A DNA stretch of 64,000 nucleotides from Opitutales bacterium (GTDB lineage Bacteria > Verrucomicrobiota > Verrucomicrobiia > Opitutales > UBA2987): positions 288,001 to 352,000 of the forward strand of contig CBDDEL010000014.1 of the NCBI GenBank assembly GCA_965226885.1. The letters are read 5' to 3'. Each line of letters starts with the position of its first letter. Positions within the stretch are counted from its first letter, which is position 1. The translations under genes and the position numbers were made by a program. Below, piece after piece: positions 1,760 through 64,000 of this stretch. The notes beneath the pieces are model-generated. The model saw only the letters and a program-made list of their open reading frames with translations, ran no database searches and had not been told where the DNA came from.

Positions 1760-3585
1760 TTCATACCGGATAATTGGCCGACAAGTTTTGCCAACGTTTT
1801 TACCCTCTCTTTTAGGAAGGGCGAATCGGGCGCGGCGCCTGCAAATTTCAAGGCGTCGGCCGTTTGGAAAAATTGGCCGACCTCTCCCACCAATTCACTT
1901 TCCACCTCTTTCCATTCCAGAAATTCGAGGATTTCCGACTGGGTCAAGGTATCGGGGCTTTGGTTGAAATGGCGGCTGAGACTCTCCTGGATGGATCGCT
2001 GGGCAGCCGCGAAGAAGGCCTCTGCATCGTTGGTGGAAGCGGCCTTTTTGGACTTCCCAAGCCACTTGCGCATGGATTTCCCGGCCCTTAAATTACGCGC
2101 GTAATGAAAGTCTTCCCGCAGCCGAAGCTGCCTTTTGCGAATGTAGATGAGGCCCGAAAGAAAAATTAACGGGGCCACCTGCCAGCCTAAAAACCGTGGC
2201 GACAGAAATGCCGGGCGCAGGGTGGGCACCCAGGTTCCCGGAAACAATTCAATGGGCAGCAAGGTTTTTTCCCGGAGCCTCACATTCGCGCCGTTCGAGT
2301 CGGCCGTGATGGCCGTAAAGGTGGCCGTTCCCACCGGGGCCGGGTTCACCGTAATGGTCGCAGCGGGAAGGACCATTTCGGTGTAACTTTCAAGTTCGGG
2401 ATCAAAATAACTGAAATGGATTTCCGGGGTGTGTTCGATATCTTCATGCTGGGGGATCAATACGTATTCGAAGGTTTTCGATCCGCGGAAGTTCAAGGAA
2501 TCGCGGGGGGAGAACTCGGCTTTGGGGGTGTAGGTTTTCCAACTTTGCCCCACGTCGATCTGAGGGGCCTGGATGCGCTCGAAATTGCCCTGCCCGGATA
2601 TTTTCAAGGTCAGTGAGAGCGGATCGCCGGCATTCATCTCCTCGGCCGAAAGGCTCTGGGTGGCGCTGAACTTGCCGATGGCCCCGGAAAAACTCTCCGG
2701 CTGGTCCTCCTCCGGCAAGGGAAGGATAGCGAGCGTAATTTCTCGCGTAGTCAGGTTCAGCTGCTGCCTCTGGCTGCGTGAGCCGAAAAAATCGTCATTA
2801 AAAAAACGTTCGAAAATATCGTTGCGGGAAGAGCGCGACGGGCGGGCGGTCCTGGGCACCGTGATTTCGACAACCATTTGATATTCGATGGTCTGAGGCC
2901 CCGATTTGAGCGGAATAAAGGTAACCGGCCAGGAGATCTTGTTGTAATTGAGATCATTGATCCTTTCCGCGCTCTGGACTCCTTGTGCATCCATGCCGCC
3001 CTGGGAAAAGGCATCGCCCAACTGTGTCGGCTGATTGTAGCGCGAGTCGGGAAAAGCCGTCAGCACATATAAATTGAGGACGCATCGGGCCACCTGCCCG
3101 ACATAGATGGGGGATTCCGGGCAAACCAGTTTTAGAAAGGATGCTTCCTCCAAAGTAACTTGCGTTTTGCCATCTGGAGGAAGGACGGTGAGGGTGGCCG
3201 CGGGCACTCGAAATGTTTCCCCCTCCATCTTGAGCGAATAAGCCGGCACTTTGTAAGTTCCCGTCGCCTTAACCCTGGCCTGAAAGATAAATGAGGTTTG
3301 CACCTGGGTTTCAAATTTTCCGTTGGTGTAAGTGCTCTGCATGCTTTGGGAGGGACCCAGGAAAGTTAATTCCAGCCCGTCCGGAGTCGGCGGTTTGAAC
3401 TTGGCGCTGGATTTCACCGCCAGGGTGACCCTGTATTGGGCGTCTTGCCCCAAGGTGATGCTGGCGGGATTGAACTGGCTAACCGGCCTGGAATTCTGAG
3501 CCGCAGCGACCGGACAAAATGCCATAAAACTTGCCGCCCATATCAGGTGAAGAATGGAATTTGTTTTGAAAAACTTCATCACCAA
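1756..3585 (-). CDS. batD: BatD family protein
   Basis: Signal peptide, FSGAIGKF and ISGQGNF motifs, TM near C-terminus, operon context. Confidence 0.85.
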   Translation of the reverse strand: MVMKFFKTNSILHLIWAASFMAFCPVAAAQNSRPVSQFNPASITLGQDAQYRVTLAVKSSAKFKPPTPDGLELTFLGPSQSMQSTYTNGKFETQVQTSFIFQARVKATGTYKVPAYSLKMEGETFRVPAATLTVLPPDGKTQVTLEEASFLKLVCPESPIYVGQVARCVLNLYVLTAFPDSRYNQPTQLGDAFSQGGMDAQGVQSAERINDLNYNKISWPVTFIPLKSGPQTIEYQMVVEITVPRTARPSRSSRNDIFERFFNDDFFGSRSQRQQLNLTTREITLAILPLPEEDQPESFSGAIGKFSATQSLSAEEMNAGDPLSLTLKISGQGNFERIQAPQIDVGQSWKTYTPKAEFSPRDSLNFRGSKTFEYVLIPQHEDIEHTPEIHFSYFDPELESYTEMVLPAATITVNPAPVGTATFTAITADSNGANVRLREKTLLPIELFPGTWVPTLRPAFLSPRFLGWQVAPLIFLSGLIYIRKRQLRLREDFHYARNLRAGKSMRKWLGKSKKAASTNDAEAFFAAAQRSIQESLSRHFNQSPDTLTQSEILEFLEWKEVESELVGEVGQFFQTADALKFAGAAPDSPFLKERVKTLAKLVGQLSGMK

Positions 3586-5474
3586 TCGCGGATGGGGGCT
3601 TCCCGCTCCTTCCCATCTGCCTTTTCAAATTGAATGACGGGGAGCTTCTTTTCATCATTTCTCATGGCTTCGAGCAATTGCCTGGCTTCTTCGCGGCTCA
3701 TTCGACCGGGAACGGCCTGGGCCTGCTCCTCGGCGGCCTCTTTTTTATCATCGCCTTCACCTTCAGAAGGTTGCTGCTGCCCCTGCTCTTCTTTTTGCTC
3801 ATCCTCGCCCTCGCCATCCTGCTGATTTTCCTGCTCGTCCTTCTGCCCTTGCTTCGACTGCTCCTGCTGGCCCTGCTGATCCTGGTTATCCCCTTCCTGC
3901 TCCTGTGAGTTTTGTTCCTTCTGGTCCTGGTCCTGATTTTCCTCCTGCTCCTGGTCCTGGTTTTCCTGTTCCTGCTGCTGTTCTTGCTGTTGCTGTTTCA
4001 ATTCCTTGATCCTCTTTTTCAACAGCTCGTAATTAAACTGGGCGTCCTCGTCCTGCGGATCGATATTGAGGCTGTTTTCGTATTCGGTTAACCCTTCCTC
4101 CCATATTTCGATGGTTTGGGCCGGATCGATGGGCAATGTCGATTCGCCCAACCGGTAAAGGGTGTTGCCCAGGTTGTAATAGGTGTCCTTTTGCAAAATC
4201 GGGTCATCCGTTTGCAGGGCATTGCGTAAGGTGTCCTCGGCATCTTCAAAATGTCCCAATCGGTATAGGGCGGCGCCAAGGTTGTATTGGATTCGCGGAT
4301 CGTCGGGGGAATCCTCGGCGGCTTTGGCATATTCTTGGCCGGCTTTGTCGAATTCTCCCTCCTCATAAAACTTTTCCCCTTTGCCGGTCGAAGCCCTCAA
4401 GTCGATCTCCACAATCGTCAAAGCGGCCAGAACCAACCCCGCCGTCCAGCGCAATGGCAGGGGCGAATAAGCGACTTTTCGCTTCCTTGTGCCCAGAAAA
4501 GTTTCCGCCATGAGGAAGAGCACGGCCAGGCCCAGTGGCCATTGAAACCGCTCATGGGGAATTTGCTGCAACCGCGCTTCCCTTTCCTCTTTGGGTATCG
4601 ATTGCAGGCCCTCGGTATAAACCTGCTCCAACCCCCGACCGGTGCTGCCGAGCCGCGTGTAAAACGCCCCCGTGGCCTCGGCCATGGCCATCAGGGTTCT
4701 CTCGTCCAGGCGGGTTTTAACGATATTGCCCTCTTCATCGCGCAAAAAATCGACGCTTCCATTTTCACCGCGAACGGGAATCAGTTCGCCGGCCAAACTG
4801 CCCACCCCGACGGTGTAGATTTTAACGCCCTCTTCGGCCGCCTGGCGGGCTTGTTCGAGGCCCGCTTCCTGCAAGTCCTCCCCATCCGTAATGAGGACCA
4901 GAATCTTGAAGTTGTCTTTATCAGCAAAGGAAACCTGGGATTCGGCAATGGCTGCCGCGATGTTGGTCCCCCCACGGGAAATGATGCTGGTGTCCACCGT
5001 TTCCAAGGTTTGACGGAAGGCGTCGTAATCCAGCGTCAGGGGGCATTGCAAAAAGGCGTTGCCGGAAAAAGCGATAAGGCCGAGCCGGTCTCCTTCCGCC
5101 CGTTCTGCCAGGTCGAGGATGGCCAGCTTGGCTCGCTCCAGACGGTTGGGCCGGATATCCTCGGCTAACATGCTTTTGGATGTGTCCAGGGCGATGAGGA
5201 TATCGATCCCCTTGCCCTTGGTCTCCTGCCAGACATAGCCCCACTGGGGCCGGGCCAAGGCAGCCAGGATGAGGAAAATTCCCGCAACGCTCAATGTGGC
5301 CTTGATATTGCGTTTCACCGGGCTGAAGGAAGAAGCCAGATCCAACAACAGCTTGGCGGCGGCGAAATGGGCCAATTTCCTCGTTTTATTCTTTTCCGAC
5401 CGGTAATAAAGAAAAGCCAGAGCGGGCAGGGCCAGCAATCCGAGGATCATCCAGAAATGGGAGGCAAAGGTCAT
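3579..5474 (-). CDS. VWA domain + TPR protein (BatB-BatC fusion) with Q/E-rich linker
   Basis: ALARPQWG, MIDAS DTSKSM, TDGED, then TPRs, a Q/E tract and a C-terminal ..RDW. Start chosen at MTFASH. Confidence 0.88.
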   Translation of the reverse strand: MTFASHFWMILGLLALPALAFLYYRSEKNKTRKLAHFAAAKLLLDLASSFSPVKRNIKATLSVAGIFLILAALARPQWGYVWQETKGKGIDILIALDTSKSMLAEDIRPNRLERAKLAILDLAERAEGDRLGLIAFSGNAFLQCPLTLDYDAFRQTLETVDTSIISRGGTNIAAAIAESQVSFADKDNFKILVLITDGEDLQEAGLEQARQAAEEGVKIYTVGVGSLAGELIPVRGENGSVDFLRDEEGNIVKTRLDERTLMAMAEATGAFYTRLGSTGRGLEQVYTEGLQSIPKEEREARLQQIPHERFQWPLGLAVLFLMAETFLGTRKRKVAYSPLPLRWTAGLVLAALTIVEIDLRASTGKGEKFYEEGEFDKAGQEYAKAAEDSPDDPRIQYNLGAALYRLGHFEDAEDTLRNALQTDDPILQKDTYYNLGNTLYRLGESTLPIDPAQTIEIWEEGLTEYENSLNIDPQDEDAQFNYELLKKRIKELKQQQQEQQQEQENQDQEQEENQDQDQKEQNSQEQEGDNQDQQGQQEQSKQGQKDEQENQQDGEGEDEQKEEQGQQQPSEGEGDDKKEAAEEQAQAVPGRMSREEARQLLEAMRNDEKKLPVIQFEKADGKEREAPIRDW

Positions 5475-5475
5475 C

Positions 5476-6504
5476 TTAGGGCAGTCTTCGATAGCGGGTT
5501 TGGCCAAGCAGCAGCTCGACCAGGAGGATGCCCAGCCCGGCCAGGGCCGGCCATTTGAACATATCCGTGAACGAAGCCAGGTATTTGATTTTTATTTCCG
5601 ATTTTTCCAGCCGGTCGATTTCGTCGTAAATATCTTCCAGAGTTTCCAAATCCGTGGCCCGGAAATAATGCGCCCCGGTCGTTTCGGCGATATTTTGCAG
5701 CGACTCGGCATCGATATCGGATAGGCCGGGCCGCAGAACAATCCTTCCCCGGCGGTCGCGCATCGGGTTGCCCTGGTTGTCGAGACGGACAGGGAAGGGA
5801 ACCTCGCCTTCTTTGCCCACCCCGATGGTATAGGCTTTGATGCCGTAGGCTGCGGCCGCTTCGGCAGCGGCCGCGGGGCTTATTTTCCCGCGGTTGTTGG
5901 CTCCGTCCGTTAGCAGGATGAGGATGCGGCTTTTCGCTTTTTGAGCGCGTAAACGGTTTACACTGATGCCGATGGCCGAGCCGATGGCCGTTCCATCCTC
6001 GATCATCCCTATCTTGAGCCGCTCCAGATTTTGCAGAAGCCATTCATGGTTCAAGGTTAGCGGACTGACCAGGTAAGGAGACCCTGCGAATGCGACGATG
6101 CCGATCCGGTCATGGGGCCTTTTTTCGATAAAATCCTCCATCACATCTTTAACCACAGTCAACCGATCGACCGGTTTACCTTTAATTTTGAAGTCGTGAG
6201 CCCACATCGAGGTGGAGAGGTCCACGGCCAGAACGATGTCGATGCCGCTTTCCTCGATTTCGTTGGTGGAGCTGCCCATCTGCGGCCGGGCCAAGGCCAG
6301 TATCAAAAGGCTGAGAGCGACCAACCGCATATTTACGAGAAACTTCCCCGGGCGGCTGCGCACGAAAGCGGAAATTTGCCGGGCCAGGGCGGTGGCGGGG
6401 AAACGTATGGACGCGGCACTGCCCCGGCGGCCCTTGAGCAAAGCCAGCAGTGGAACCAAAATCAGGAGCCATAGAAATTCGGGAGATTCAAATCGGTAAA
6501 TCAT
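5476..6504 (-). CDS. batA: BatA VWA domain protein
   Basis: ALARPQ, DLSTSM MIDAS, DGTAIGSAI and LLTDGANNRG motifs. Start chosen at MIYRFE. Confidence 0.9.
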   Translation of the reverse strand: MIYRFESPEFLWLLILVPLLALLKGRRGSAASIRFPATALARQISAFVRSRPGKFLVNMRLVALSLLILALARPQMGSSTNEIEESGIDIVLAVDLSTSMWAHDFKIKGKPVDRLTVVKDVMEDFIEKRPHDRIGIVAFAGSPYLVSPLTLNHEWLLQNLERLKIGMIEDGTAIGSAIGISVNRLRAQKAKSRILILLTDGANNRGKISPAAAAEAAAAYGIKAYTIGVGKEGEVPFPVRLDNQGNPMRDRRGRIVLRPGLSDIDAESLQNIAETTGAHYFRATDLETLEDIYDEIDRLEKSEIKIKYLASFTDMFKWPALAGLGILLVELLLGQTRYRRLP

Positions 6505-6505
6505 A

Positions 6506-7291
6506 TTATGACTCGGCCAGAACGGCTTCCTTTTCGGCCTCAACGGGCTTTGGCTCTCCCTCGGAGGCGCCTCTTTTTTCAGCTTCAGCCAGGAGCCGCA
6601 GGCGCATTTTATGTTTCACGTAGGTTTCCTCAACCAGCTTGCGGCCTGTTCCCAAAAGGTCCTCCATTCCGTCCAGACCGAGTGGGTAACGGGCAAATTT
6701 GGCCAGATCGCACATTTGCAAAAAACGGGAAAAACTATCCGCCAGGGGGCCTTTGATCAGTGGATGGTCATGAATGTCGTAGAGAAACTCCTCAGTCGTG
6801 CTCTCCGGCGCAGGCATATCGAATTGACGTTCCAGAAAATAGCGGACGGCATCGGAAACCGCGATGGAAAACGCTTTGTCCTGCCCCGATTTCATCAAGC
6901 TTCGGGTGGCGTCGAGCTCCTGCAAAGCCTGATCATAGGGATCGATCGGGATCGGGTCCGATTTTTGACACAGCTTGCGCATAATCAGGCGAACGAGGAA
7001 AGCCAACAGGCCCAAACCCGCCAAAACCCCAGCCGCGATGAGGAAAGGCATCCAGGGGTTGGGAATGGAAACCGGGCCGTGAATATCGCGGATGTCCTCA
7101 ATCGCTTCCCCTCCCCCCGGTCCCGGTGAGGCCGGCGGCACAGAAGAGGACTGGGCGGGATCGACGTCCAAAGGAGACGGCAGCATATCCAGGGGCAGAT
7201 TGGTTTGCCCGCACAGGCCCGTTGCCGAAATCAGGAGGAGCAACAGAACAGCCGGCAAATTTCTTGGATAGTTAAAAGATGGGGTCATCAT
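6506..7291 (-). CDS. Membrane protein of the bat cluster (DUF4381-like)
   Basis: DIRDIHGP before a TM helix, ESTTEEFL and DLAKFA motifs; lies between DUF58 and batA. Confidence 0.7.
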   Translation of the reverse strand: MMTPSFNYPRNLPAVLLLLLISATGLCGQTNLPLDMLPSPLDVDPAQSSSVPPASPGPGGGEAIEDIRDIHGPVSIPNPWMPFLIAAGVLAGLGLLAFLVRLIMRKLCQKSDPIPIDPYDQALQELDATRSLMKSGQDKAFSIAVSDAVRYFLERQFDMPAPESTTEEFLYDIHDHPLIKGPLADSFSRFLQMCDLAKFARYPLGLDGMEDLLGTGRKLVEETYVKHKMRLRLLAEAEKRGASEGEPKPVEAEKEAVLAES

Positions 7292-8220
7292 CGGCGTCTT
7301 TCCCGCTTGGTGAAGAATTCCCGCAAGGCTGTAATATAAGGCTCCGAGGTGGAAACGGAAAGGTGGTCCACCCCGCTCGAACGCAACCCCCGCCGCAGCG
7401 ATTCATGCCGCTTGGCGTTCTGGTGGCGGTAAAGATGGCGCAATTGGCGGTTGGCCGTGTCAATTTCCACCATCTCCCCGGTTTCGGCGTCTTCGAGAGT
7501 GACGATGCCCACATTGGGAAGCTCGAATTCGCGCGGATCGGAAAGATCGATGCAAATGAGGTCGTGCCGTTTATTGGTCAGTTGGATGGTTTTGTAGAGC
7601 TCGTCTTTTTTCCCCGTAGTGGGCCGGATCCAGGCCAGGGATTCCTCCGTAATGAAGTCGGAAAGCAAAAAAGTGACGGCTCTACGGCGAAGGATTTTGT
7701 TGAGGTATCTCAAGGCAAGGGGAATATCCGTGCCCCGGTTTTGCGGCTCATAAAAAAGAATATCGCGAATCACCCGCAGGACGTGCTGGCGGCCTTTTTT
7801 GGGGAAAATTACTTTTTCAACTTTATCGGTGAAAAGGAGGAGGCCCACTTTGTCGCTGTTTCGGGTGGCAGAAAAAGCGAGCACACTGGCCAGTTCGGCC
7901 GCCAGCTCGCGCTTGCTCTGATCGACCGAGCCGAAATCCCCAGAGGCGCTCAAATCGACGCACAACATGATGGTCAGCTCGCGCTCCTCCCGGTATTTTT
8001 TAACAAAAGGCCGGTCCATCTTGGCCGTAACGTTCCAGTCGATATTGCGCACATCGTCCCCCGGCGCGTATTCGCGCACCTCCTCGAAATCCATTCCCTG
8101 GCCCTTGAATACGCTGTGGTAGGCGCCCACCATGGTGTCGGTGACGAAGTGGCGGTTGCGGATTTCCACCTGGCGCACCTTTTTCAGGATTTGTTTGGTG
8201 ATTTCGGCAGTTTCTGACAT
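7288..8220 (-). CDS. DUF58 domain protein
   Basis: GMDFEEVREYAPGDDVRNIDWNVTA motif. Confidence 0.92.
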   Translation of the reverse strand: MSETAEITKQILKKVRQVEIRNRHFVTDTMVGAYHSVFKGQGMDFEEVREYAPGDDVRNIDWNVTAKMDRPFVKKYREERELTIMLCVDLSASGDFGSVDQSKRELAAELASVLAFSATRNSDKVGLLLFTDKVEKVIFPKKGRQHVLRVIRDILFYEPQNRGTDIPLALRYLNKILRRRAVTFLLSDFITEESLAWIRPTTGKKDELYKTIQLTNKRHDLICIDLSDPREFELPNVGIVTLEDAETGEMVEIDTANRQLRHLYRHQNAKRHESLRRGLRSSGVDHLSVSTSEPYITALREFFTKRERRR

Positions 8221-53303: not shown

Positions 53304-54674
53304 TCAGGTTTGGAATTGGATTCGCTGGGCGGTGGATCGGTGGTTGGCCAAGAGTTGGTCGAGCTCGAGACCGGGGATGCGACCCTCTCGCACTCGGATG
53401 CGGCCATTGACGATCAGGGTGTCCACCTGACGGGGAAAGCACAGGATGAGGGCTTCGACCGCATTTTCGGCTCCGCTGCTGAAAATATCCTCAGCCGGGA
53501 AGATCGCCAGGTCGGCGCATTTGCCGGTTTCCAGGGAACCGAGGTCATCGCTGCGGCCCAGGCAGGCCGCCCCTTCGGTCGTGGCCAATTGGAGGGCCTC
53601 CATAACGCTCATGGCGCCGGCGCCGTATTTGACCCGGGCCAGGAGGAGCGCCTGCCGCACCTCATTGAGCATGTGCCCGGAGTCATTGGAGGCGCTCCCG
53701 TCAACCCCCAGGCCGACTCTGGCGCCTGCTTTTTGCAGGTCATTGACCCGGCAAATTCCAGCACCCAGCCGCATATTGGAGCAGGGGCAGTGGGCGATGC
53801 CCATCTTTCGCCTGCCGAGATGGGCAATTTCACCTTCGTCGAAGTGGATTCCGTGGGCCAGCCATACGCGTTGCGTTTCCCAACCGCAATCGGCCAGAAA
53901 CGGCAATTGCCGGCGCCCCAGGTGGTCGAGCGCATATTGATCTTCGGCCAGAGTCTCCCCGCAATGGGTGTGCAAACCCAGGTCCAGAGCAGTAGCCAGG
54001 CGGGCGCTTTCGGAATATAGGGTGGGGGACGCGCAGGTGAGAGCCGATGGGGCCAAAAACAAACGGCTCATGCTGCCGCCTTCAGGATCGTGGTAGCGGT
54101 CATGCAGACGCTGGCAGTCATGCATGATTTCGTCCATCGTTTCGGTTGCCCATTGCGGTATGATTTCCGAAGCGGTGTCCATGGAACCGCGACCGGCGTG
54201 AAACCGCATCCCCATATCTCTGGCGGCCTCGAATTGGGCGTCGATATAGCCGGCGCTTGATGATGGAAACAGGTAGTGATGATCGGCGGTCGTTGTGCAT
54301 CCGGTCAGCATCAATTCGGCCATGGCGACCTTTGTGGCGATGAAGATGTCATCCGCGGTCAGGTTTTTGAATAGCGATGTGATGCAGGTCAGCCAGGGGA
54401 GAAGGGCAAAGTTCGTAGCCGGTGAGTGAGCCCGGGCCAGATTTTGAAAAAAATGATGGTGAGTATTGATCAGCCCCGGCAGTGCGATGCCTTGGCGGGC
54501 GTCAATGGTTTCGCTATCGGCAGATTCCTGCTCCGGCGGTTGACCACATCCTATGGCGCAAATCCAGCCGTCTGCTATGTCAATCCAAGCGTTTTTCAAT
54601 ACCGAACACTTCGCATCCATCGTGACGAGATGGCCGATATTCTTTATGCGGAGTCGAGAGCTGACAGAATTCAT
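53304..54674 (-). CDS. 8-oxoguanine deaminase-like amidohydrolase
   Basis: PGLINTHHHFFQ, ADHHY, RFHAGRGSM, WLAHG, HCPCSNMRLG, GVDGSASND. Confidence 0.88.
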   Translation of the reverse strand: MNSVSSRLRIKNIGHLVTMDAKCSVLKNAWIDIADGWICAIGCGQPPEQESADSETIDARQGIALPGLINTHHHFFQNLARAHSPATNFALLPWLTCITSLFKNLTADDIFIATKVAMAELMLTGCTTTADHHYLFPSSSAGYIDAQFEAARDMGMRFHAGRGSMDTASEIIPQWATETMDEIMHDCQRLHDRYHDPEGGSMSRLFLAPSALTCASPTLYSESARLATALDLGLHTHCGETLAEDQYALDHLGRRQLPFLADCGWETQRVWLAHGIHFDEGEIAHLGRRKMGIAHCPCSNMRLGAGICRVNDLQKAGARVGLGVDGSASNDSGHMLNEVRQALLLARVKYGAGAMSVMEALQLATTEGAACLGRSDDLGSLETGKCADLAIFPAEDIFSSGAENAVEALILCFPRQVDTLIVNGRIRVREGRIPGLELDQLLANHRSTAQRIQFQT

Positions 54675-54753: not shown

Positions 54754-55828
54754 CTAAGCTGTAAATTTTCTGCCGAGTCCTAATTTGGCCAGCTCCTGGT
54801 GATAGACAATCGATGTGCGGTCCGCGCGGACATGCACTTCCTCGGCCAGATCGAGCGGCAGGCGTTCCGGGGTTTGCCTTTCGACAATAGCTCGGTCTTC
54901 GCTGTAAAGCTTGTCCTGAAAAGCGAGACATCCTCTACCGGTTGATTGCGGTCAAAGTTTCGGGTCACAATGGCAAAGAGACGCGATTGTTCCGCTGAGC
55001 AGGGACTGTTGGCGTTCAGAATGGTGATGATTCCTCCTTCCGGTTCCGGGCAATGAATCACCAGCCGGGCTGTAAAGGGTAGGTAGATGTGGTAAACCCT
55101 TCTCCAAATAGCTTCGTCTATTTCGCTGTTGGAAGTATCGGCAAGGCGAGGGGCATTGCCAACCGTGCTGATGTAATCGGCATAAACTCCATAGGATGTA
55201 GGTTTGACCTTGTAATTGGGCACCAAGACATCCTCTTGGCGGGAAAAAGAATCGAAGTGGATGAAAGCGAAATGGGCTACGTCGGAAAAGCTCTCGATCT
55301 GCCGTCCCGAAGAGATTTTCCAATCCATTGGCGGCACATTTATGTTTTGATATTCCGCATCGTCGAATTCCGGAAATTCGGCCATCATCCCCTTTGGTTC
55401 CGTTCCCAGGCAGACCCATATCAAGCCGTACTTTTCCTGGCAGAGGTAGGTTTTCAAGCAAAGCCGCCCGGAGATCGGCGCCTCTGGGTTTGCTGGTACA
55501 AGTGTGCACTTCCCATGAGCATTGTAGCGATAACCATGATAGGCGCAGACGATTTCGTCGCCCTCCATTGTTCCGATACTGAGCGGCGTTCCCCGATGGA
55601 GGCAGAGATCCCGTGCCGCGGTAATTTTATTACAAGTGCGATAAAGCACAATTTCCTCATCCAGCAGTTTTCTTGCCACGGGCGCGTCTTGAACCTCATC
55701 GCTATATGCTACCGGATGCCAATAGGATGCCAATAGACTGAAAGAATTTCCCAATCGCTTGTAGAAAATGTGCACCCGTCCGGCATGATCACCGATTTCT
55801 CATTATTCATGGCATTTGATTCATCCAT
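54754..55828 (-). pseudogene. Rieske non-heme oxygenase alpha subunit (VanA/NdmA-like) with two frameshifts
   Basis: CLHRG..CAYHG Rieske motif and ESFSDVAHFAFIH. An 11-bp duplication at 55715-55736 and a 1-nt loss near 54928 break the frame; the repaired C-terminus is ..EDRAIVERQTPERLPLDL..LGRKFTA*. Confidence 0.88.
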
Positions 55829-56054: not shown

Positions 56055-57847
56055 TTATAATTCCTCGACCCAGAGAGTGTTGGCGATTCCGACATTTCCG
56101 GCCCAAGAACGGCCGCCGGCCCAGGATCTTCCCCCAGCCCATGAACGCCCGCCTGCCCATGATCTTCCGCCTGCCCAAGAACGCCCTCCGGCCCAGGAAC
56201 GCCCTCCGGCCCAGGATCTTCCGCCAGCCCATGATCTTCCGCCGGCCCAAGAACGCCCTCCGGCCCAGGATCTTCCCCCAGCCCAAGAACGACCACCGGC
56301 CCAGGATCGGCCGCCTGCCCATGTCATTCCATAACCCCAGCCCATCTGGTTGTCTTCCCAGGTGAGGCCGGATGATTCCAGAGTCTCCGAATCTATCCAC
56401 TCCAGGGTGTCTGTCCAGGCGGCGCCCAATGCCACCGTGGCTGCCTCTTCCTCATCATAGATGGTGTAAATAAAAGCGGAACTGTCATCGCTGGTCAGAA
56501 CATTGATCGGGCCCATATAATGGTAGGACATTTCAACCGGATCGACTTCGTCTGGGTCCACCATGTCGTCACCGTTCAGATCGACCCATCCGATTCCGTG
56601 GGCCAGATCGGCTTCCAAATCCATGCCGTAATTGGCCCGGCCGTCTTCCGGAATGTCGGCTCCGAAAATAGCGTTTGGCGCCCATATACGGCCCATTCCT
56701 TGTTGGAAGATATTGTAAACCAGGTCCCCGTCTGCATCGTTGATGGCGGGAGCCGCTGTGTACATTAAGCGAAATTTGACCTGATCGGGATCCAGGTCCG
56801 GGAGTGCGTCCAGCATCAGGGCCACCACACCTGAGGCAACGGCGGTGGACATGCTGGTTCCACTCATGCGAAAAAGGCTGCTCGATTCCGTATAATCGGG
56901 GTGTTGCTGGACCAGGGTGGCCGAATTGGTGATGTCGTCGGGATCGTTGTACATGAAAGAAACAATCTTGCTGCCCGGGGCCAGAATGTCGGGTTTGGCG
57001 AAATTATCCAAGGTCGGTCCCGTGGCCGACCAATCCGGCAGGATATCGTCCGACCAATCGGCAGCCGTCATATTGCTGTCCACTGCGCCCACCGTAATCA
57101 CATAAGGGTCGTTGCCCGGCACGGTTATACTTTCGGCGTTGGGCCCGGTGTTCCCAGCCGCGCCCACCACCACAATGCCGCTGGCCCAGGCTTGTTCCAC
57201 AGCCCGGTTTAATGGATCCACAAAATAGGGGGTGGTGGCATATGCGCTCAGGCTTAAATTAAGAACCCGGATTTTGTAATAATCTTTGTTATCAACGACA
57301 AACTGGATTCCTTCGATGACGTCCTCGTAAGTTCCCATACCCTCGTCATCGAGTGCCCTCACACTGAAGATTTTTGCGTTCGGGGCGATACCCAGGTAGG
57401 TATTCGAATCCAAATCTTTGAAACGGCTGCCGATAATGCCGGCCACATGGGAACCATGGCCATAGTAGTCTCGGCTGTTCTGGGCGTCGCTAATGCAAAA
57501 ACCGTCGTATTGCCACATGCCGTTCAGGTCGTCGTCGTCCACGCCGTCCAAATTTTCATCCTCGAAATACCCGTCATCGATACACATCCCATCGTCCACA
57601 AAATCAACCTGGGCAACAAAATGAATGGCATCTTTCATCGTCAGGATTTTTCCCTTCAGCGCCTCTGCATCCCCGTCGATTTCCGCTTCCGGTATGGGAA
57701 AGAAATACACTCCCGAATCAAGGACAGCAACCGTTACTCCTCCGCCCTTTATCTTCTCTCTGTGCAGTTCGTCGGCGCCCACATCCATACCAACGGGCCA
57801 AGCTTTGTCGGTCGCCTTCAGGTCTTTGATATGCACCTTGACTTTCT
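56055..57847 (-). pseudogene. S8 (subtilisin/AprX-like) serine peptidase: catalytic domain and C-terminal Trp repeats, separated from its 5' part by IS1
   Basis: VAVLDSG, GHGSHVAGII, AAGNTG, SGTSMS; joins in frame to 62700-63023 through the TSD GACTTTCT. Confidence 0.92.
56097..56321 (-). repeat. Coding tandem repeat of 18 bp: (WAGGRS)x12 plus WAG
   Basis: 13 Trp codons spaced exactly 18 nt apart; units differ only at synonymous positions. Confidence 0.97.
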
Positions 57848-59453
57848 GGTAGTGTATAAAAAAAGAATGTTATTTTGTATTTTTAGCTGTACAAATAGCG
57901 TTAGGCAGTTTATTCTTAGTGCATGGTTACTAAAATTATTAATTGTCGGCACTGTGGAAGTGAAAATATCATTAAATTTGGCAAGACGCCCAACCATAAA
58001 CAGCGCTACCGCTGCCATGATTGTGGTAAACAAAGCCGCGAAAACCCCACAGTGAAATACACCGAAGAGCAAAAAGAAATGGGTAGTGTTAACATTTTGA
58101 ATGTTTAAGCTGTACTTTTTAGCGTGATTATGTTGTGAACTGGGAATGGTCCATATCACAGTAAAATGTCCTCAATGCGGAAGCGATCACATCATCAAGC
58201 ACGGCAAGGATCCGAAAGGGGTTCAGAAGTATCGATGCAAGGGGTGTGGTTATCAGTTTCGGCTTCACCCCAAAAGTCGTGAGCATCCTCCGGCGCTGGT
58301 CAAGCAGGTGCTCCGTGCGCACCAAAACCGGATGAGCCTGCGTGCCATTTACCGTACCTTCGGGGTAGCCCCAAAGACGGTCATCGAATGGATTAAAAAA
58401 AAGTCCTGAGTTTGCCGAAGCTGGAGTCCACTCTGCTTGCCCGCCAGTGTAGTGATGTGCTGGAACTGGACGAGGTGTGGTCATTCTGGGGCGATAAGCG
58501 TTCGGGGCAGGTATGGCTATGGGTAGCCTTGTGTCGACGTACCCGACAGGTCGTCGGGTTTTCTCTGGGTGATCGTAGCGATCAAACGTGCTGGCAGTTG
58601 TATCACAACATCGCCCAGCCCTATCGCGACTGTGCCACCGTAAGCGATTACTGGGAAAGCTACGACAAGGTTTTCCCTCACAACAGCGCCAGCGGGAAAC
58701 AATCCGGCCAAACCGCCCATATCGAACGCTGGAACAATACCTTGCGACAGTCCCTGTCACGCTATGTGCGTAAAACGCTGTCATTCTCGAAGTCTTTGGT
58801 CATGCATTTTCGCGTCCTGTGCTTGTTCATCTGGGAATACAACAGCAATATCAAACATTCGTCATGTTAACACTACCAAGAAATGATCCTTCGAGTCTAT
58901 CAGGAACGCAGCAGTCTACGCGGTTTACAGCGCGCCTTCGGGGTGAGTCCCAACACCGTTTTGAGTTGGTTAAAAAAAACGACAATCGCTGCGACCGCTC
59001 AAAAGCACGATTCTTGCGGCCCGCCGCCATGATGTCATTGAACTGGACGAACTGTGGTCTTTTGTGGGGCGCAAGAGCGATGCCCAATGGGTTTGGATCG
59101 CTCTTTGCCGACGCACCCGTCAAATCCTCTCCTATGCCATTGGGCCTCGGGATTGGTATCGTTGCCGGGAACTTTACGAGCGTCTGCCACGGGCCTACAA
59201 AAGATGTGCCACCTACAGCGACTTTTGGAGCACTTATGATGAAGTCTTTCCTCATAACCGATCCGTGGGAAAAGAAACCGGTGAAACGGCCCATGTGGAA
59301 CGATGGAACAATACCCTGCGCCAACGACTGGGTCGTTTCACACGCAAAACCCTCTCCTTTTCCAAGCTTAAGAGTATGCATGAAACCTGTCTGAGACTTT
59401 TCATTCATCAATATAATCAAGAATTAGCCACCATTCCTACTTAATACACTACC
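57848..59453 (+). mobile_element. IS1 (IS-C copy 3) containing a nested different IS1
   Basis: Length 1606 = 802 + 796 + 8; left flank GACTTTCT, right flank GATTACCG. Confidence 0.95.
58082..58877 (+). mobile_element. Second IS1 family element (IS-D, 796 bp)
   Basis: IR GGTAGTGTTAACAT, 8-bp TSD AAGAAATG, insA 58146-58409, A-AAA-AAG -1 slip site, insB to 58870. Confidence 0.95.
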
Positions 59454-59535
59454 GATTACCGGAATAAGTTATATTTTTCACTTAAAACGCAGTTTGGGCA
59501 CATATTATTTCTCAATTTATAAAGGATTTCAAATC

Positions 59536-59575
59536 ATGAAATCAATTTTTAACATGCAAGGACCGGTTTACCTAG
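59536..59575 (+). pseudogene. Displaced start (13 codons) of the S8 protease gene
   Basis: AAGGA SD-like sequence, then MKSIFNMQGPVYL ending in CTAG; joins in frame to VSLLFLSATSSF (63020 downward) to give a plausible signal peptide. Confidence 0.7.
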
Positions 59576-61142
59576 CCCGGATATTTCATGAAGGGTAAAG
59601 TTTGGCTCGTTATTGCTATTGGAGATGGATTTCTTTGTATTTTGAGCAGATCGTCTTGATTTTTAGGTGTTTTTCAGGGTGTAGAGACACTGCCCCCTTT
59701 CCCCCATTGGTTCGGTAGTGCCGGGGGCAGCACCAATGCACCCTTTAGGTTGGCACCAATCGGCGGGCCGCATGGTTGAAAAGACTGGCCCAAGGATAAC
59801 TCTCACTTAGGTGAAAGTGAATCGTTCGGGTGTTGCGCACGATGACCGCTCCGATCTTGATTAATTTGAGCCGCAGGGTGTGGCATTGGGCCCGCGCCCA
59901 CTTCGTCCCTTTTAAGGCTAACCGGCGCATGGCTTCCATCAAGGTGTAGGCCAGCGCCGACAAGAGCAATCGCCACTGATTGGCCCACCATTGATGGGCG
60001 CTGGTGCGCTCGCTGAACAATTGCATCTGTTCCTTGATTCGGTTCTCCATTTCACCGCGGCCACAGTATACCTTGTCGTAAAGCTCCTGGGGATCGCCCG
60101 GCAGGTTCGTCACCACGAAGCGCGGGTTGGACCCCTGTGCGGTGTGTTCGGCTTTATGGATGACCAACCGCAGCCATCGCCACGAATCGGCAGCATAGAC
60201 GAAGTCCTGGAATAACCGTTGTTTTTTACCCCTTAGTTCGAACCATTCTTTGGCCTGCTTTTGCAACTGCTGGGCGTCTTGCTGCAAGCGTGCATTGCGA
60301 GCCATCCCCACGATGTAACTAACTTCGTTGCGGTCGCACCAAGAGAGTATCCGGTCTCGACAAAATCCACTGTCGGCGCGCCAAATAATCCGCGTACGGG
60401 GCCAGCTTTGGCGAATCCGTTTAACCAGCAATTTGAGGATGGCCCCGGCATGCTTGCTGGCATCGATCTTGCTCGGCCGCAGGTAGGCCACCAGCAGCTG
60501 ATCACCGCAAAAAACATATAGCGGCAGAAAACAGTAATGATCATAATAACCGTGGAAAAAACGTCCCTCCTGGAGCCCGTGCACCGGATTGTCGGTGGCG
60601 TCAAAGTCCAGGATGATCTCTTCGGGTTCCTCGGCAAAGGAGCCCATGAACTGTTCGACCAACAGCTCGTTTACCGCAAAGGCCGCCCGCCGATCCTGCC
60701 CGTTTTCAAAACGACACAAAGTCGGCGCGCTGGCCAACGTTTCAATGCGCCCCGTTACCGTTTGCAACAATGGATCGTGGCGCAGGGTATCAAAGTCGTT
60801 CAAATCCTCATAGCCCGCCACCAGCCCGTAAACGCGCTGCCGCAGCATCCCCAATACCTCATGGCGTACTTTGCCCTTCTGCCGTTTGTCCACTAACTGT
60901 CGGGCCGCTCGTTCGGTCAAGCCCAACTGCCGATCCACTTCCCGGATCAAAAGCAGTCCGGCATCCGAAGTAACCTCTCCGCCCTTGAAATCAACCCGCA
61001 CACGGCGGCCTTTTACCCTTGTCAACTGTAGCTTTAATTGTTTACCTTTTGTCATCGCTGATATTGCTTTAATTATTGATCTATCCTGCTGTATATCAGC
61101 AGTTAAGCATATCAACGATACTTTTTTTACGAAATATCCGGG
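59576..61142 (-). mobile_element. IS1380 copy 4, intact (1567 bp); transposase 59745-61115
   Basis: Both IRs present, CTAG on both sides, uninterrupted ORF. Confidence 0.96.
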
Positions 61143-61832
61143 CTAGGGGACCTGGAAAACCAGGCCAGAAGTCTCGACAACCTAGGGGCCTTGCGCATGG
61201 CGCAGGGAAATTATGAAACGGCCGGGAACAACTTCAACGCAGCTTTGCAAATCCGCGAAAAATTGGGCGAAAAATATGGAGTATCGCAGTCTCGGGCCAA
61301 CCTCGCTCAATTAGCTCTAACGGTAAATAACATCGAAGAAGCATTACCTCATGCGGTGGCTAGTATGGAATTGGCCAAAGAAACCGGCGGCAAGGAAATC
61401 GAGGTTTGGGCAGGCTGGGTTCTGGCGTTGGTGGAAGCTGAAAACGAAGAGATGGAGAATGCTTTGGCAACCGCTAACAGGGCATTGCAACTGGCCCAAG
61501 ATGAAGGGTTCCGGGATGAAGAAATCGATTGCCTGAGAACATGCGGAATTCTCATCGCAAGAACCGGTGCTTATATTAAAGCCGAAGAAACTTTACGACG
61601 GTCTCTCGATCTATCACTTGAGGGAAAGGATCCTTATCGTGAAGGCCTTGCTCATTTAAATCTAGGCTTAATCCACCTTGAAAAATTGGAACAAGATGTT
61701 TCTCCCGAAAGAGAAATATTGCGCAAGAAAACACAAGGCTTTCTGCATGCGGCGAAAGAAATATTTGAATCCATGGGTTCTTCCAAGAATCTTATTCAAT
61801 GCAACACCGCACTGAAAAACTGCACCTATTGA
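61143..61832 (+). pseudogene. C-terminal fragment of a TPR-repeat protein
   Basis: LGDLENQARSLDNLGALRMAQGNYETA..ALQIREKLG; frame open back to the IS1380 CTAG. Confidence 0.82.
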
Positions 61833-61896
61833 TAGTTCTAATTAATCACGTGATTATAACGTTCTGTTTAATTTGAATAAATTAGTCAGATTACCG

Positions 61897-62699
61897 GGTA
61901 GTGTATAAAAAAAGAATGTTATTTTGTATTTTTAGCTGTACAAATAGCGTTAGGCAATTTATTCTTAGTGCATGGTTACTAAAATTATTAATTGTCGGCA
62001 CTGTGGAAGTGAAAATATCATTAAATTTGGCAAGACGCCCAACCATAAACAGCGCTGCCGCTGCCATGATTGTGGTAAACAAAGCCGCGAAAACCCCACA
62101 GTGAAATACACCGAAGAGCAAAAAGAAATGATCCTTCGAGTCTATCAGGAACGCAGCAGTCTACGCGGTTTACAGCGCGCCTTCGGGGTGAGTCCCAACA
62201 CCGTTTTGAGTTGGTTAAAAAAAAACGACAATCGCTGCGACCGCTCAAAAGCACGATTCTTGCGGCCCGCCGCCATGATGTCATTGAACTGGACGAACTG
62301 TGGTCTTTTGTGGGGCGCAAGAGCGATGCCCAATGGGTTTGGATCGCTCTTTGCCGACGCACCCGTCAAATCCTCTCCTATGCCATTGGGCCTCGGGATT
62401 GGTATCGTTGCCGGGAACTTTACGAGCGTCTGCCACGGGCCTACAAAAGATGTGCCACCTACAGCGACTTTTGGAGCACTTATGATGAAGTCTTTCCTCA
62501 TAACCGATCCGTGGGAAAAGAAACCGGTGAAACGGCCCATGTGGAACGATGGAACAATACCCTGCGCCAACGACTGGGTCGTTTCACACGCAAAACCCTC
62601 TCCTTTTCCAAGCTTAAGAGTATGCATGAAACCTGTCTGAGACTTTTCATTCATCAATATAATCAAGAATTAGCCACCATTCCTACTTAATACACTACC
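61897..62699 (+). mobile_element. IS1 (IS-C copy 4, 803 bp, A9 slip run)
   Basis: Left flank GATTACCG, right flank GACTTTCT. Confidence 0.95.
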
Positions 62700-63023
62700 G
62701 ACTTTCTTTCCCCTTTTCGCGGATTTGATGCGTTTGTTTTCCACAATGGAGACAATCTCGGGATATGCGGCCAATTCACCCAAACGGAATGAGGGAATTT
62801 CTGCCGCTACGGCATTGATGATATGAAGATCGCTGGTGACCTCTCCTCCCAACTTTGCCACAATGTGCGCCGCCGTGCGGGAGTTTTGAGCCGTTGCGAT
62901 AATGGCTATGGAATCCGACTCGCTATCCCATAAACTTGTTTCAACATAAGCAGGTCCATTATTAACCGATGGATCTGGCTCATAAAATGAAGAGGTTGCA
63001 CTTAAAAAAAGTAGGCTTACTAG
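62700..63023 (-). pseudogene. S8 protease N-terminal part (signal peptide remainder and propeptide)
   Basis: Open frame LVSLLFLSATSS..LGGEVTSDLHIINAVAAEIP..KRGKKV, resembling an I9-type propeptide. Confidence 0.85.
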
Positions 63024-64000
63024 CCCGGATATTTCGTAAAAAAAGTATCGTTGATATGCTTAACTGCTGATATACAGCAGGATAGATCAATAATTAAAGC
63101 AATATCAGCGATGACAAAAGGTAAACAATTAAAGCTACAGTTGACAAGGGTAAAAGGCCGCCGTGTGCGGGTTGATTTCAAGGGCGGAGAGGTTACTTCG
63201 GATGCCGGACTGCTTTTGATCCGGGAAGTGGATCGGCAGTTGGGCTTGACCGAACGAGCGGCCCGACAGTTAGTGGACAAACGGCAGAAGGGCAAAGTAC
63301 GCCATGAGGTATTGGGGATGCTGCGGCAGCGCGTTTACGGGCTGGTGGCGGGCTATGAGGATTTGAACGACTTTGATACCCTGCGCCACGATCCATTGTT
63401 GCAAACGGTAACGGGGCGCATTGAAACGTTGGCCAGCGCGCCGACTTTGTGTCGTTTTGAAAACGGGCAGGATCGGCGGGCGGCCTTTGCGGTAAACGAG
63501 CTGTTGGTCGAACAGTTCATGGGCTCCTTTGCCGAGGAACCCGAAGAGATCATCCTGGACTTTGACGCCACCGACAATCCGGTGCACGGGCTCCAGGAGG
63601 GACGTTTTTTCCACGGTTATTATGATCATTACTGTTTTCTGCCGCTATATGTTTTTGCGGTGATCAGCTGCTGGTGGCCTACCTGCGGCCGAGCAAGATC
63701 GATGCCAGCAAGCATGCCGGGGCCATCCTCAAATTGCTGGTTAAACGGATTCGCCAAAGCTGGCCCCGTACGCGGATTATTTGGCGCGCCGACAGTGGAT
63801 TTTGTCGAGACCGGATACTCTCTTGGTGCGACCGCAACGAAGTTAGTTACATCGTGGGGATGGCTCGCAATGCACGCTTGCAGCAAGACGCCCAGCAGTT
63901 GCAAAAGCAGGCCAAAGAATGGTTCGAACTAAGGGGTAAAAAACAACGGCTATTCCAGGACTTCGTCTATGCTGCCGATTCGTGGCGATGGCTGCGGTTG
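63024..64000 (+). mobile_element. IS1380 copy 5, frameshifted, runs off the window
   Basis: Left IR after CTAG; T5 instead of T6 at ~63652 shifts the frame. Confidence 0.93.

Follow-up and report, generated by a model that had tools for sequence, protein, structure and literature searches.

What would a secreted protease do with twelve identical copies of a six-residue peptide strung along its C-terminus, and what would a TPR protein encoded next door have to do with it? These questions are raised by a broken gene in a 64,000-nucleotide stretch of an Opitutales genome (Verrucomicrobiota, UBA2987; assembly GCA_965226885.1, contig CBDDEL010000014.1, forward strand positions 288,001 to 352,000), hereafter the window. 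At positions 56055-63023 of the window, the pieces of a subtilase (peptidase family S8) gene lie scattered among insertion sequences (ISs), together with part of a TPR gene. We are highly confident in our reconstruction of the S8 gene and in the pattern that emerges at the level of its family, where arrays of identical, tryptophan (Trp)-containing units recur at the C-terminus and two types of sensor are encoded alongside. As an explanation we propose, guardedly and as a possibility short of likely, a cross-phylum module in which the secreted subtilase would serve at once as polyprotein precursor and as processing enzyme for a short peptide that ends in Trp and is specific to its lineage. The reader of this peptide would be either the TPR arm of a STAND cyclase or a seven-transmembrane (7TM) sensor with histidine-kinase or c-di-GMP outputs.

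The pieces of the S8 gene, and the target duplications that bear on their order, are as follows.

56055-57839, minus strand: S8 C-terminal piece, with an open reading frame (ORF) at 56055-57836 (593 aa) that holds the catalytic domain, a beta-rich C-domain, the repeat tail and the stop codon.
59462-59575, plus strand: S8 start piece, with 74 bp of S8 upstream region and the first 13 codons (ATG at 59536); it ends in CTAG and matches the N-terminus of the S8 protein at related locus L008.
62700-63023, minus strand: S8 middle piece, covering residues 13-120 of the join (the end of the putative signal peptide, then the propeptide region) and lying between GACTTTCT and CTAG.
57840-57847: 8-bp target duplication GACTTTCT of an IS1-family insertion in S8, with its partner at 62700-62707.
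59454-59461: target duplication GATTACCG of an IS1 insertion in the spacer between the TPR and S8 genes, with its partner at 61889-61896.

Joined as 59536-59574 (plus), 63020-62700 (minus) and 57839-56055 (minus), the pieces form a reading frame of 2145 nt that stays open for 714 codons up to its terminal stop. Each joint amounts to taking out an IS and leaving a single copy of the flanking target duplication, which is CTAG at the first (copies at 59572-59575 and 63020-63023) and GACTTTCT at the second. Joining across GATTACCG leaves 138 bp between the stop codon of the TPR gene (61830-61832) and the start codon of S8. Three lines of evidence indicate that this join is not due to chance. The intact 742-aa S8 protein of locus L003 is colinear with it through both joints (69% identity over 706 aa), as is the unbroken N-terminal part of the L008 S8 protein (78% over 322 aa). 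L008, whose S8 is 90% identical to that of the window, has a TPR gene (3572-5077), 138 bp of spacer and S8 from 5216 onwards, all on one strand. Finally, an IS-free allele in which the C-terminal, middle and N-terminal pieces are contiguous is found on a single 942-nt contig in X2 and X4, public sequencing runs from different studies; with only roughly 91-95% identity to the window pieces, this contig comes from a related strain. The first-pass annotation had read the three scattered pieces as one in-frame ORF of about 714 aa, placed the 3' end of a TPR gene about 140 bp upstream on the same strand, and called the locus inactivated in this genome, and all three claims stand: the layout is identical in L008, and the S8 and TPR genes are both split here by IS insertions and inversions.

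A more deflationary explanation is that the gene is a product of mis-assembly through identical IS copies, or a chance ORF. The genome does hold dozens of 100%-identical IS4-type copies, which invite mis-joins. However, all of the IS/flank junctions recur with 0 differences in contigs of run X1 (which may be the source sample), the IS1-interrupted junction at 57297-57872 is also present in X2 and X4, the gene is interrupted under any order of the pieces, and the join matches intact relatives. An artefact of this kind is thus next to negligible as an account of the locus.

The protein encoded is a recognizable enzyme. The 593-aa ORF matches Peptidase_S8 at 159.9 bits against a Pfam cut-off of 21.8 (E 1.1e-46, residues 31-366); it matches no other Pfam family and no NCBIfam model at its cut-off. 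The intact D/H/S triad noted from the sequence at first pass is present in that order (DSG, D40; HGSH, H127; GTSMS, S328; numbering of the 593-aa ORF), and across 79 aligned relatives S328 is invariant while D40 and H127 are kept in at least 90%. The join begins MKSIFNMQGPVYLVSLLFLSATSS..., which by eye we judge to be a putative signal peptide, and acidic loops that are putatively Ca-binding-like are visible in the sequence. As for the propeptide, Inhibitor_I9 gives a sub-threshold match in L003 (17.2 bits against a cut-off of 21.2) and no match in the window piece, and the AlphaFold2 (AF2) model of homolog P0011 has a confident beta-alpha-beta-beta-alpha-beta N-terminal domain that is propeptide-like. 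For the window's 593-aa ORF, AF2 gives a mean predicted local distance difference test score (pLDDT) of 80.9 and a predicted template-modelling score of 0.86 from a 79-row alignment, with both the catalytic and the beta-rich C-domain folding well. Its own genome encodes no second S8 of this kind.

The closest solved structure is that of Tk-SP from Thermococcus kodakarensis (3afg/9ues; sequence E 4e-38, Foldseek E 4e-24). According to the available part of its published description, Tk-SP autoprocesses its N-propeptide first and then loses its C-domain, Asp540-Gly640 (about 100 residues), at maturation (PMC3599501). The two enzymes share an S8 domain followed by a beta-rich C-domain, and the N-propeptide of Tk-SP has a putative counterpart in the window protein; in Tk-SP the last ~100 residues are removed. 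Tk-SP is, in contrast, only about 30% identical to the window protein, archaeal and studied for its stability, and the same part of its description reports neither a Trp-unit array nor a sensor neighbour (PMC3599501).

The S8 gene of the window belongs to a large clade. A protein search gave 3517 matches at E <=0.001 among 8000 scored candidates, the best of them mostly Chloroflexota proteins of ~700 aa with Trp-periodic tails, and at least 608 stretches in species-representative genomes encode relatives. We analysed the best 78 loci, which include 60 from Chloroflexota, 8 from Acidobacteriota, 5 from Gammaproteobacteria, 2 from Opitutales and 1 from Solirubrobacteraceae; being the most similar of at least 608, they are related to each other and are not independent samples. 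ORFs were read from stop to stop, and neighbour families were built by single-linkage clustering and home-made hidden Markov models.

The tail of the window protein has two parts.

56106-56321, minus strand: array of 12 x WAGGRS, 216 nt.
56058-56105, minus strand: conserved end piece WAGNVGIANTLWVEEL, following the array and carrying the family-wide terminal motif [ST]T.W[VI].[DE], which is seen in most homologs.

The 12 identical hexapeptides first noticed at this C-terminus are exactly 12 copies of WAGGRS, yet they are written in 10 different 18-nt versions with a mean nucleotide identity of 0.78. The third position differs in 57% of codons, and by eye we count at least 12 synonymous and 0 non-synonymous changes. 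Collecting related S8 proteins with C-terminal Trp-periodic tails, as had been suggested, extends this to the family: 86 of 102 S8 ORFs (>=330 aa, from the 78 loci) have at least 4 identical units of 5-8 residues, and Trp is present in 82 of the 86 array units. The units themselves vary across lineages (GRMAWAG, GYATWSG, SYGLWSG, GGFWGD, DGYLWS, EGTVWN, SVVWGD, GGNSWG, GLPTWSG, GMATWAG, GAWSGAI, GRFWGD and GFWGD among them) and between paralogs as well. Across loci, units that are identical as peptides have a median nucleotide identity of 0.85, and in L056 17 SYGLWSG units come in 17 DNA versions. Since the units within one protein are identical as protein but scrambled in their codons, the pattern indicates that every position in every unit is under purifying selection, while the unit remains free to change between lineages. 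A strict tail expression, W[ASG][GT], flagged 51 of the best 120 matches and missed the FW, YW and long-period types, which were found by eye or with the unit counter.

The array has no predicted fold. In the AF2 model of the window ORF, residues 509-581 have a pLDDT below 50 and no secondary structure, followed by a short strand at 583-586 (pLDDT ~62); in the heptad homolog P0011, which has GRMAWAG units, residues 600-687 likewise fall below 50 and lack secondary structure (alignments of 79 rows for the hexad tail and 73 for the heptad tail). Neither Pfam nor NCBIfam has a family for the tail, and a search of the ESM Atlas with residues 395-593 gave a best score of 0.88, with 'Hexapep' in 16-28% of cluster members, which is below the level of a lead.

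These features bear on the possibility that the tail stays attached to the enzyme, with its Trp array serving as an anchor on a cell-surface or substrate polymer or at the membrane interface, or as a tethered ligand for a 7TM sensor. Trp recurs at a fixed 5-8-residue period in nearly all arrays, aromatic ladders are known to bind carbohydrates in many binding modules, and since a conserved strand closes the protein after the array, the array may be a loop held in place on either side. However, such tails occur in Chloroflexota, Opitutales, Acidobacteriota and Gammaproteobacteria, whose envelopes are very different; the array has no predicted fold; and its non-Trp positions are free between lineages but strictly identical within a protein, an identity that generic polymer binding does not need. 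On balance we consider a permanently attached tail unlikely.

Several homologs depart from the common tail layout. An S8 gene in an Anaerolineae locus (L007, 45-3401) carries eight Tyr-rich GYYYLGGV units, without Trp, in place of the Trp units, with a 7TM gene downstream. Tandem runs of 3-8 S8 paralogs occur in Gammaproteobacterial and Promineifilaceae loci (L046 6741-16271, L059 1889-15749, L035 and L017), and every paralog carries a unit of its own (DGYLWS, SMLWGD and YLWSD among them); in L046, four tandem S8 genes lie between a REC-PAS-GGDEF-EAL and a GGDEF-EAL gene. Other homologs have an extra domain past the tail (P0001, P0012, P0023, P0028 and P0034; L010, L012, L014, L015, L020, L027-L029 and L036) and end in a short hydrophobic motif, [FY]LP[LAMI]...[KR], as in LFLPAVNNGR, IYLPMLFK and LYLPLINK, which may be a C-terminal sorting signal.

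What lies beside the S8 genes is the second part of the pattern. Sensor genes are within 600 bp of the S8 ORF in 46 of the 78 loci, or 46 of 59 once loci with short flanks are set aside.

TPR class within 600 bp of S8: 27 loci.
7TM class within 600 bp of S8: 15 loci (Chloroflexota).
Acidobacterial stand-alone 7TM within 600 bp of S8: 4 loci (7TM total 19).
No sensor, with at least 2.5 kb on both sides: 13 loci.
No sensor, with a short flank: 19 loci.
7TM domain examples, each adjoining an S8 gene of the clade: L024 10686-11500, L054 9884-10700, L009 10182-10950 and L071 9308-10033, plus 15 further loci.

The question put at first pass, whether TPR or other sensor genes are conserved beside homologs, can thus be answered with a yes: 27 of 78 loci have a TPR homolog within 600 bp, and a 7TM sensor takes this place in 19 more. 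The count of 46 leaves out L015 and L019, where TPR-class ORFs lie 610 and 1015 bp upstream, L073, which has a GAF-GGDEF-EAL protein with a weak 7TM match, and L046, with its GGDEF-EAL genes on both sides. Clustering of the neighbours revealed no other widely shared gene.

The TPR gene of the window is itself in two parts.

61149-61832, plus strand: TPR gene 3' part, 227 codons equivalent to residues 275-501 of the 501-aa L008 TPR protein (82% identity), with Pfam matches to TPR_12 and TPR_MalT.
L002 1568-2362, minus strand, past the window end: TPR gene 5' half, equivalent to L008 TPR residues 1-257 (88% identity).

The TPR-class neighbours are mostly ~1180-aa STAND proteins with Zn-ribbon, Guanylate_cyc, AAA_16 and TPR_12/MalT-like domains. 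This full cyclase-AAA_16-TPR architecture is present in neighbours at L023, L025, L032, L037, L044, L060 and L064, and in L088 from the window's genus; the window TPR protein, rebuilt from its two halves, and its L008 ortholog consist of TPRs only. Searched with phmmer against all stop-to-stop ORFs of the 78 loci, the L008 TPR protein matches large S8-adjacent proteins at 80-360 bits over residues ~10-450, and it shares 49-53% identity with the last 505 aa of the L088 cyclase protein. Within the genus, every S8 copy adjoins a TPR paralog, and G007 encodes on one strand a cyclase-AAA-TPR protein (1152 aa), S8 (750 aa) and a TPR-only protein (338 aa). This arrangement makes the window TPR protein a truncated paralog of the STAND sensor arm. 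Neither the cyclase-AAA-TPR proteins nor the window-type TPR proteins have a clear membrane span (there is one weak hydrophobic window in 2 of 5), which places them in the cytoplasm.

A TPR protein next to a secreted protease recalls the RRNPP systems (Rap-Phr, NprR-NprX, PlcR-PapR, AimR-AimP and ComR-XIP), in which short secreted peptides are matured by proteases outside the cell, re-imported and read by a cytoplasmic TPR protein; Phr peptides, for example, are matured by subtilisin, Epr and Vpr. The first-pass annotation, pointing to such receptors (Rap, NprR, PlcR and AimR), proposed that the tail may yield peptides such as SWAGGR, cut by its own protease and read by the TPR protein next door; in its strict form, this would be an RRNPP-type quorum-sensing pair. 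The adjacency is real, and such receptors do bind short protease-matured peptides, but the strict form did not survive closer comparison. The TPR proteins of L008 (501 aa), L003 (499 aa), L086 and L087 have TPR-family matches only (TPR_12, TPR_MalT and others), with no helix-turn-helix (HTH), no Rap or other phosphatase domain and no RNPP-type Pfam match, and their TPR_12/MalT-like module is homologous to the sensor arms of STAND cyclases. RRNPP receptors are HTH or phosphatase proteins paired with a separate small precursor gene, whereas here a 12-copy tail is carried by the protease itself, and the 138-bp spacer between the TPR and S8 genes holds no small separate pro-peptide ORF. We regard an RRNPP-type pair as very improbable.

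Five Chloroflexota genomes used as a control each have 1 clade S8 gene and 3-10 cyclase-AAA-TPR matches (E <=1e-30). Compared with the neighbour found at L044, the paralog beside S8 far outscores the others, at 1017 bits against 205 in G003 and 534 against 269 in G002. G004, which has a 7TM-type locus, has no ortholog of L044's cyclase neighbour. By these matches the S8-cyclase-AAA-TPR adjacency is specific.

The S8 and cyclase-AAA-TPR genes could also be viewed as an anti-phage or other conflict system, in which the STAND NTPase senses infection and a nucleotide signal or the protease acts as effector. Defence systems often contain STAND-TPR proteins, the cyclase is Pycsar-like at the domain level (PycC, 94 bits), and the S8 domain gives generic 'subtilase' and IetS matches in PADLOC. 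These PADLOC matches are at the domain level only, however, and no known defence architecture fits. The S8 protein, with its signal-peptide-like N-terminus and propeptide, would act outside the cell, no conserved cNMP-binding effector emerges nearby from neighbour clustering, and partners consisting of a 7TM kinase and a regulator do not fit. A role in defence is therefore a remote prospect.

The 7TM class is built on a conserved domain of ~250 aa with 6-8 hydrophobic spans, encoded co-directionally and just downstream of S8. It has the motifs FN.GM, NLWLLIGVL.LQ.G and FFLPI.LSAYAFRLY and matches no Pfam family at E up to 1, which makes it a candidate new sensor domain. It is fused either to HisKA/HATPase_c, with an OmpR-type regulator gene next, or to HD-GYP (L009, L011 and L012), and stands alone in loci of Bryobacteraceae and Terriglobales (Acidobacteriota). 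The Agr system offers a parallel, as a peptide-processing protease (AgrB), a peptide precursor (AgrD), a polytopic-membrane histidine kinase (AgrC) and a response regulator (AgrA) are encoded together; similarly, in the 15 Chloroflexota loci S8 is followed by a histidine kinase or HD-GYP protein with 6-8 membrane spans, and in the kinase loci an OmpR-type regulator comes after it. Unlike in Agr, the protease is of an unrelated class, the regulator is of the OmpR and not the LytTR type, AgrD has no separately encoded counterpart and the 7TM domain belongs to no Pfam family.

How might protease, array and sensor work together? We infer export, cleavage, the identity of the peptide, its uptake and its binding as the steps of a single pathway. 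The S8 protein would be exported and shed its N-propeptide, leaving the array of identical Trp-centred units (12 x WAGGRS in the window) as an unfolded stretch between the beta-rich domain and the conserved last strand. The enzyme would then cut its own array, most plausibly after each Trp, to yield many copies of one short peptide. The peptide would be read by a neighbour, which in some lineages would be the TPR arm of the cyclase-AAA-TPR STAND protein (after uptake) and in others the 7TM sensor in the membrane, joined to a histidine kinase or an HD-GYP domain. A cut after Trp is plausible because most heptad units have a hydrophobic residue three places before the Trp and a small residue after it, and these positions match the usual preferences of subtilisins at P4, P1 and P1'. 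We favour this reading, in which the enzyme would release short Trp peptides from a polyprotein-like array and the neighbour would sense them, in a tentative way and as an open bet rather than as a probable outcome. It draws on the two constant types of sensor beside S8, whose outputs vary (cyclase, kinase, HD-GYP or none), on the lack of fold in the predicted tail, and on the shedding of the C-terminus by Tk-SP.

Much of this evidence can be read in another way: the tail would serve as a self-substrate or C-terminal pro-region, with its units matched to the specificity pockets of the enzyme, and would inhibit the enzyme intramolecularly, like a 'fuse', to be degraded once the protein has been exported; no signalling would be involved, and the sensors would regulate the protease gene. 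The maturation of Tk-SP is again a precedent, as in the available part of its description the C-domain is lost at that stage. Units that co-evolve with the enzyme's own pockets would also be identical within a protein and different between proteins, the unfolded AF2 prediction fits equally, and a two-component system beside the gene that it regulates is commonplace. The partners, however, are less easily accommodated: cyclase, HD-GYP and stand-alone 7TM proteins are not transcription factors, and the convergent orientation of the cyclase gene in most Chloroflexota loci speaks against simple operon regulation. Moreover, the sensor types beside S8 (TPR and 7TM) stay constant as their outputs vary, which fits a place for S8 on the input side. 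We therefore rate a purely self-directed tail as somewhat unlikely, though it is a real contender.

The proposal of release and sensing by the neighbour has weaknesses of its own. The units abut one another, with no spacers and no dibasic sites. The conserved last strand in the models suggests that the array is a loop of a folded protein, which could act while attached, and the low pLDDT may mean that AF2 is unable to model such repeats. No sensor is found within 600 bp of S8 at 13 loci that have at least 2.5 kb on both sides. The cyclase and S8 genes converge in most Chloroflexota loci and are therefore not co-transcribed. The TPR-class partners are cytoplasmic, and clustering found no conserved importer near S8. 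Finally, in the window's genus, where both a WAGGRS (RS) and a WAGGRA (RA) paralog type exist and G008 has both, the unit type does not track the clade of the TPR paralog: the L008 TPR protein (RS) is 46% identical to that of L086 (RS) and 61% identical to that of L087 (RA). All of these points weigh against a released and sensed peptide. A co-fold of the L003 TPR protein (24-row alignment) with the 109-aa L003 tail scored 0.00, was run with no controls and is evidence neither way.

Outside bacteria, there are precedents for precursors of this form. In eukaryotic polyproteins, such as yeast alpha-factor with Kex2, the Kex2-processed repeats of fungi and the ustiloxin precursor UstA, tandem units that are kept identical as protein are released by an S8-family protease, and the borosin OphMA carries its own core peptide at its C-terminus. 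The eukaryotic systems differ from the S8 clade in that the protease is separate and the cuts lie at dibasic spacers, and none of them is a bacterial S8 protein with its own multi-copy array. On the sensor side, the conserved neighbour has exactly the architecture of the cyclase-ATPase-TPR STAND proteins (class III cyclase, AAA_16 and TPR; MalT-like). The portion of the open-access literature covered here contains no description of such a protein paired with a secreted protease, and nothing on this clade, on Trp-unit subtilase tails or on a subtilase-cyclase-TPR pairing.

Taken by itself, the window is ordinary: it holds a pseudogene in a genome overrun by ISs. The locus took three insertions of IS1-family and two of IS4-type elements, besides at least two IS-mediated inversions, and the elements involved are as follows.

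57848-59453, plus strand: IS1-family element copy A, with repeats and Pfam matches to DDE_Tnp_IS1 and Zn_ribbon_InsA; itself interrupted.
58082-58877: second, different IS1-family element nested in copy A, with 8-bp duplication AAGAAATG at 58074-58081 and 58878-58885.
59576-61142, minus strand: IS4-type element copy 1, 1567 bp, with a transposase ORF at 59745-61115 and CTAG on both sides; Pfam DDE_Tnp_1_4, E 2.8e-165.
61897-62699, plus strand: IS1-family element copy C, 803 bp, flanked by GATTACCG on the left and GACTTTCT on the right.
63024-64000, plus strand: IS4-type element copy 2, inverted relative to copy 1 and continuing beyond the window end to about window-equivalent 64589.

The assignment to the IS1 family follows from the InsA zinc-ribbon and DDE_Tnp_IS1 matches, the GGTAGTGT... 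ends and the 8-bp duplications; IS1 elements make target duplications of 8-9 bp. The IS4-type elements belong to the IS4 superfamily by their DDE_Tnp_1_4 match (550 bits), their CCCGGATATTTC ends bordered by CTAG and their many identical copies. Copies 1 and 2 form inverted repeats that are 100% complementary, and the element has at least 76 matches in the 5.48-Mb genome (17 contigs), most of them full-length and 100% identical and some head to tail, with 40 of 350 candidates scored. It has undergone a recent, massive expansion in this genome. That the IS1 copies have swapped flanks and the IS4 copies are inverted is consistent with two inversions in succession, one through each pair, and a model with these two inversions correctly forecasts the TPR 5' half on the minus strand just past IS4 copy 2. 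A single simple insertion does not explain the break in the TPR gene, as ~17 codons (L008 residues 258-274) are missing between its halves; at least one further event, an IS4 insertion or a deletion, must have taken place.

Some smaller observations concern these elements and their surroundings. An A-run (~58963 and 62209-62217) differs in length by one A between IS1 copies A and C, a contig of run X12 has one letter fewer at 62217, and IS1-type elements usually frameshift at such a site. Past the window end, L002 1568-9564 (window-equivalent ~64.6-72.6 kb) holds at least 3 tandem TPR paralogs on one strand, each broken by other IS types, with IS3-like, IS21-like (a 554-aa and 255-aa pair) and IS630-like ORFs. 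Two ORFs on the 3' side of S8 in the window resemble, as judged by eye, an amidohydrolase (53304-54674) and a Rieske-type oxygenase (54780-55775); the first of them is syntenic with L008 9406-10833. The L008 S8 gene is independently broken (6197-8039) by a different IS with a 494-aa transposase (6375-7859), a second copy of which lies upstream of the TPR gene. The module is thus decaying in more than one lineage of the window's genus, with intact copies kept in G006, G007 and G008. Its distribution is narrow within the order: all 4 of the other genomes from the genus carry an S8 gene of this clade, and at E <=1e-60 none was found in 4 genomes of the family's other genera or in 52 from the rest of the order. 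Such a distribution fits acquisition by transfer, and the window fits the wreck of a horizontally acquired two-gene module of S8 and TPR.

Beyond this one genome, in a clade of at least 608 loci, a protease that bears one short peptide in many copies, scrambled in their codons, is coupled to two kinds of dedicated sensor. If our proposal is not true, the strict identity of units within each protein still needs explaining. Carriers in culture make the proposal directly testable, among them Alteromonas aestuariivivens KCTC 52655 (L069, with EGTVWN units), Glaciecola sp. 1036 (L074) and Chloroflexales bacterium ZM16-3 (L023). If it is true, the clade would provide a bacterial example of an enzyme with its own multi-copy product, as well as a class of ligand for a group of orphan STAND cyclases and for a 7TM domain that has had no annotation. 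To our knowledge, bacterial peptide signalling is known almost only from the RRNPP and Agr systems of Firmicutes and their phages, with a few morphogens of cyanobacteria besides. The module would then be a cell-cell signal for filamentous Chloroflexota and other little-studied phyla, and would bring peptide communication to Chloroflexota, Acidobacteriota, some Gammaproteobacteria and one genus of Opitutales, where none has been known.

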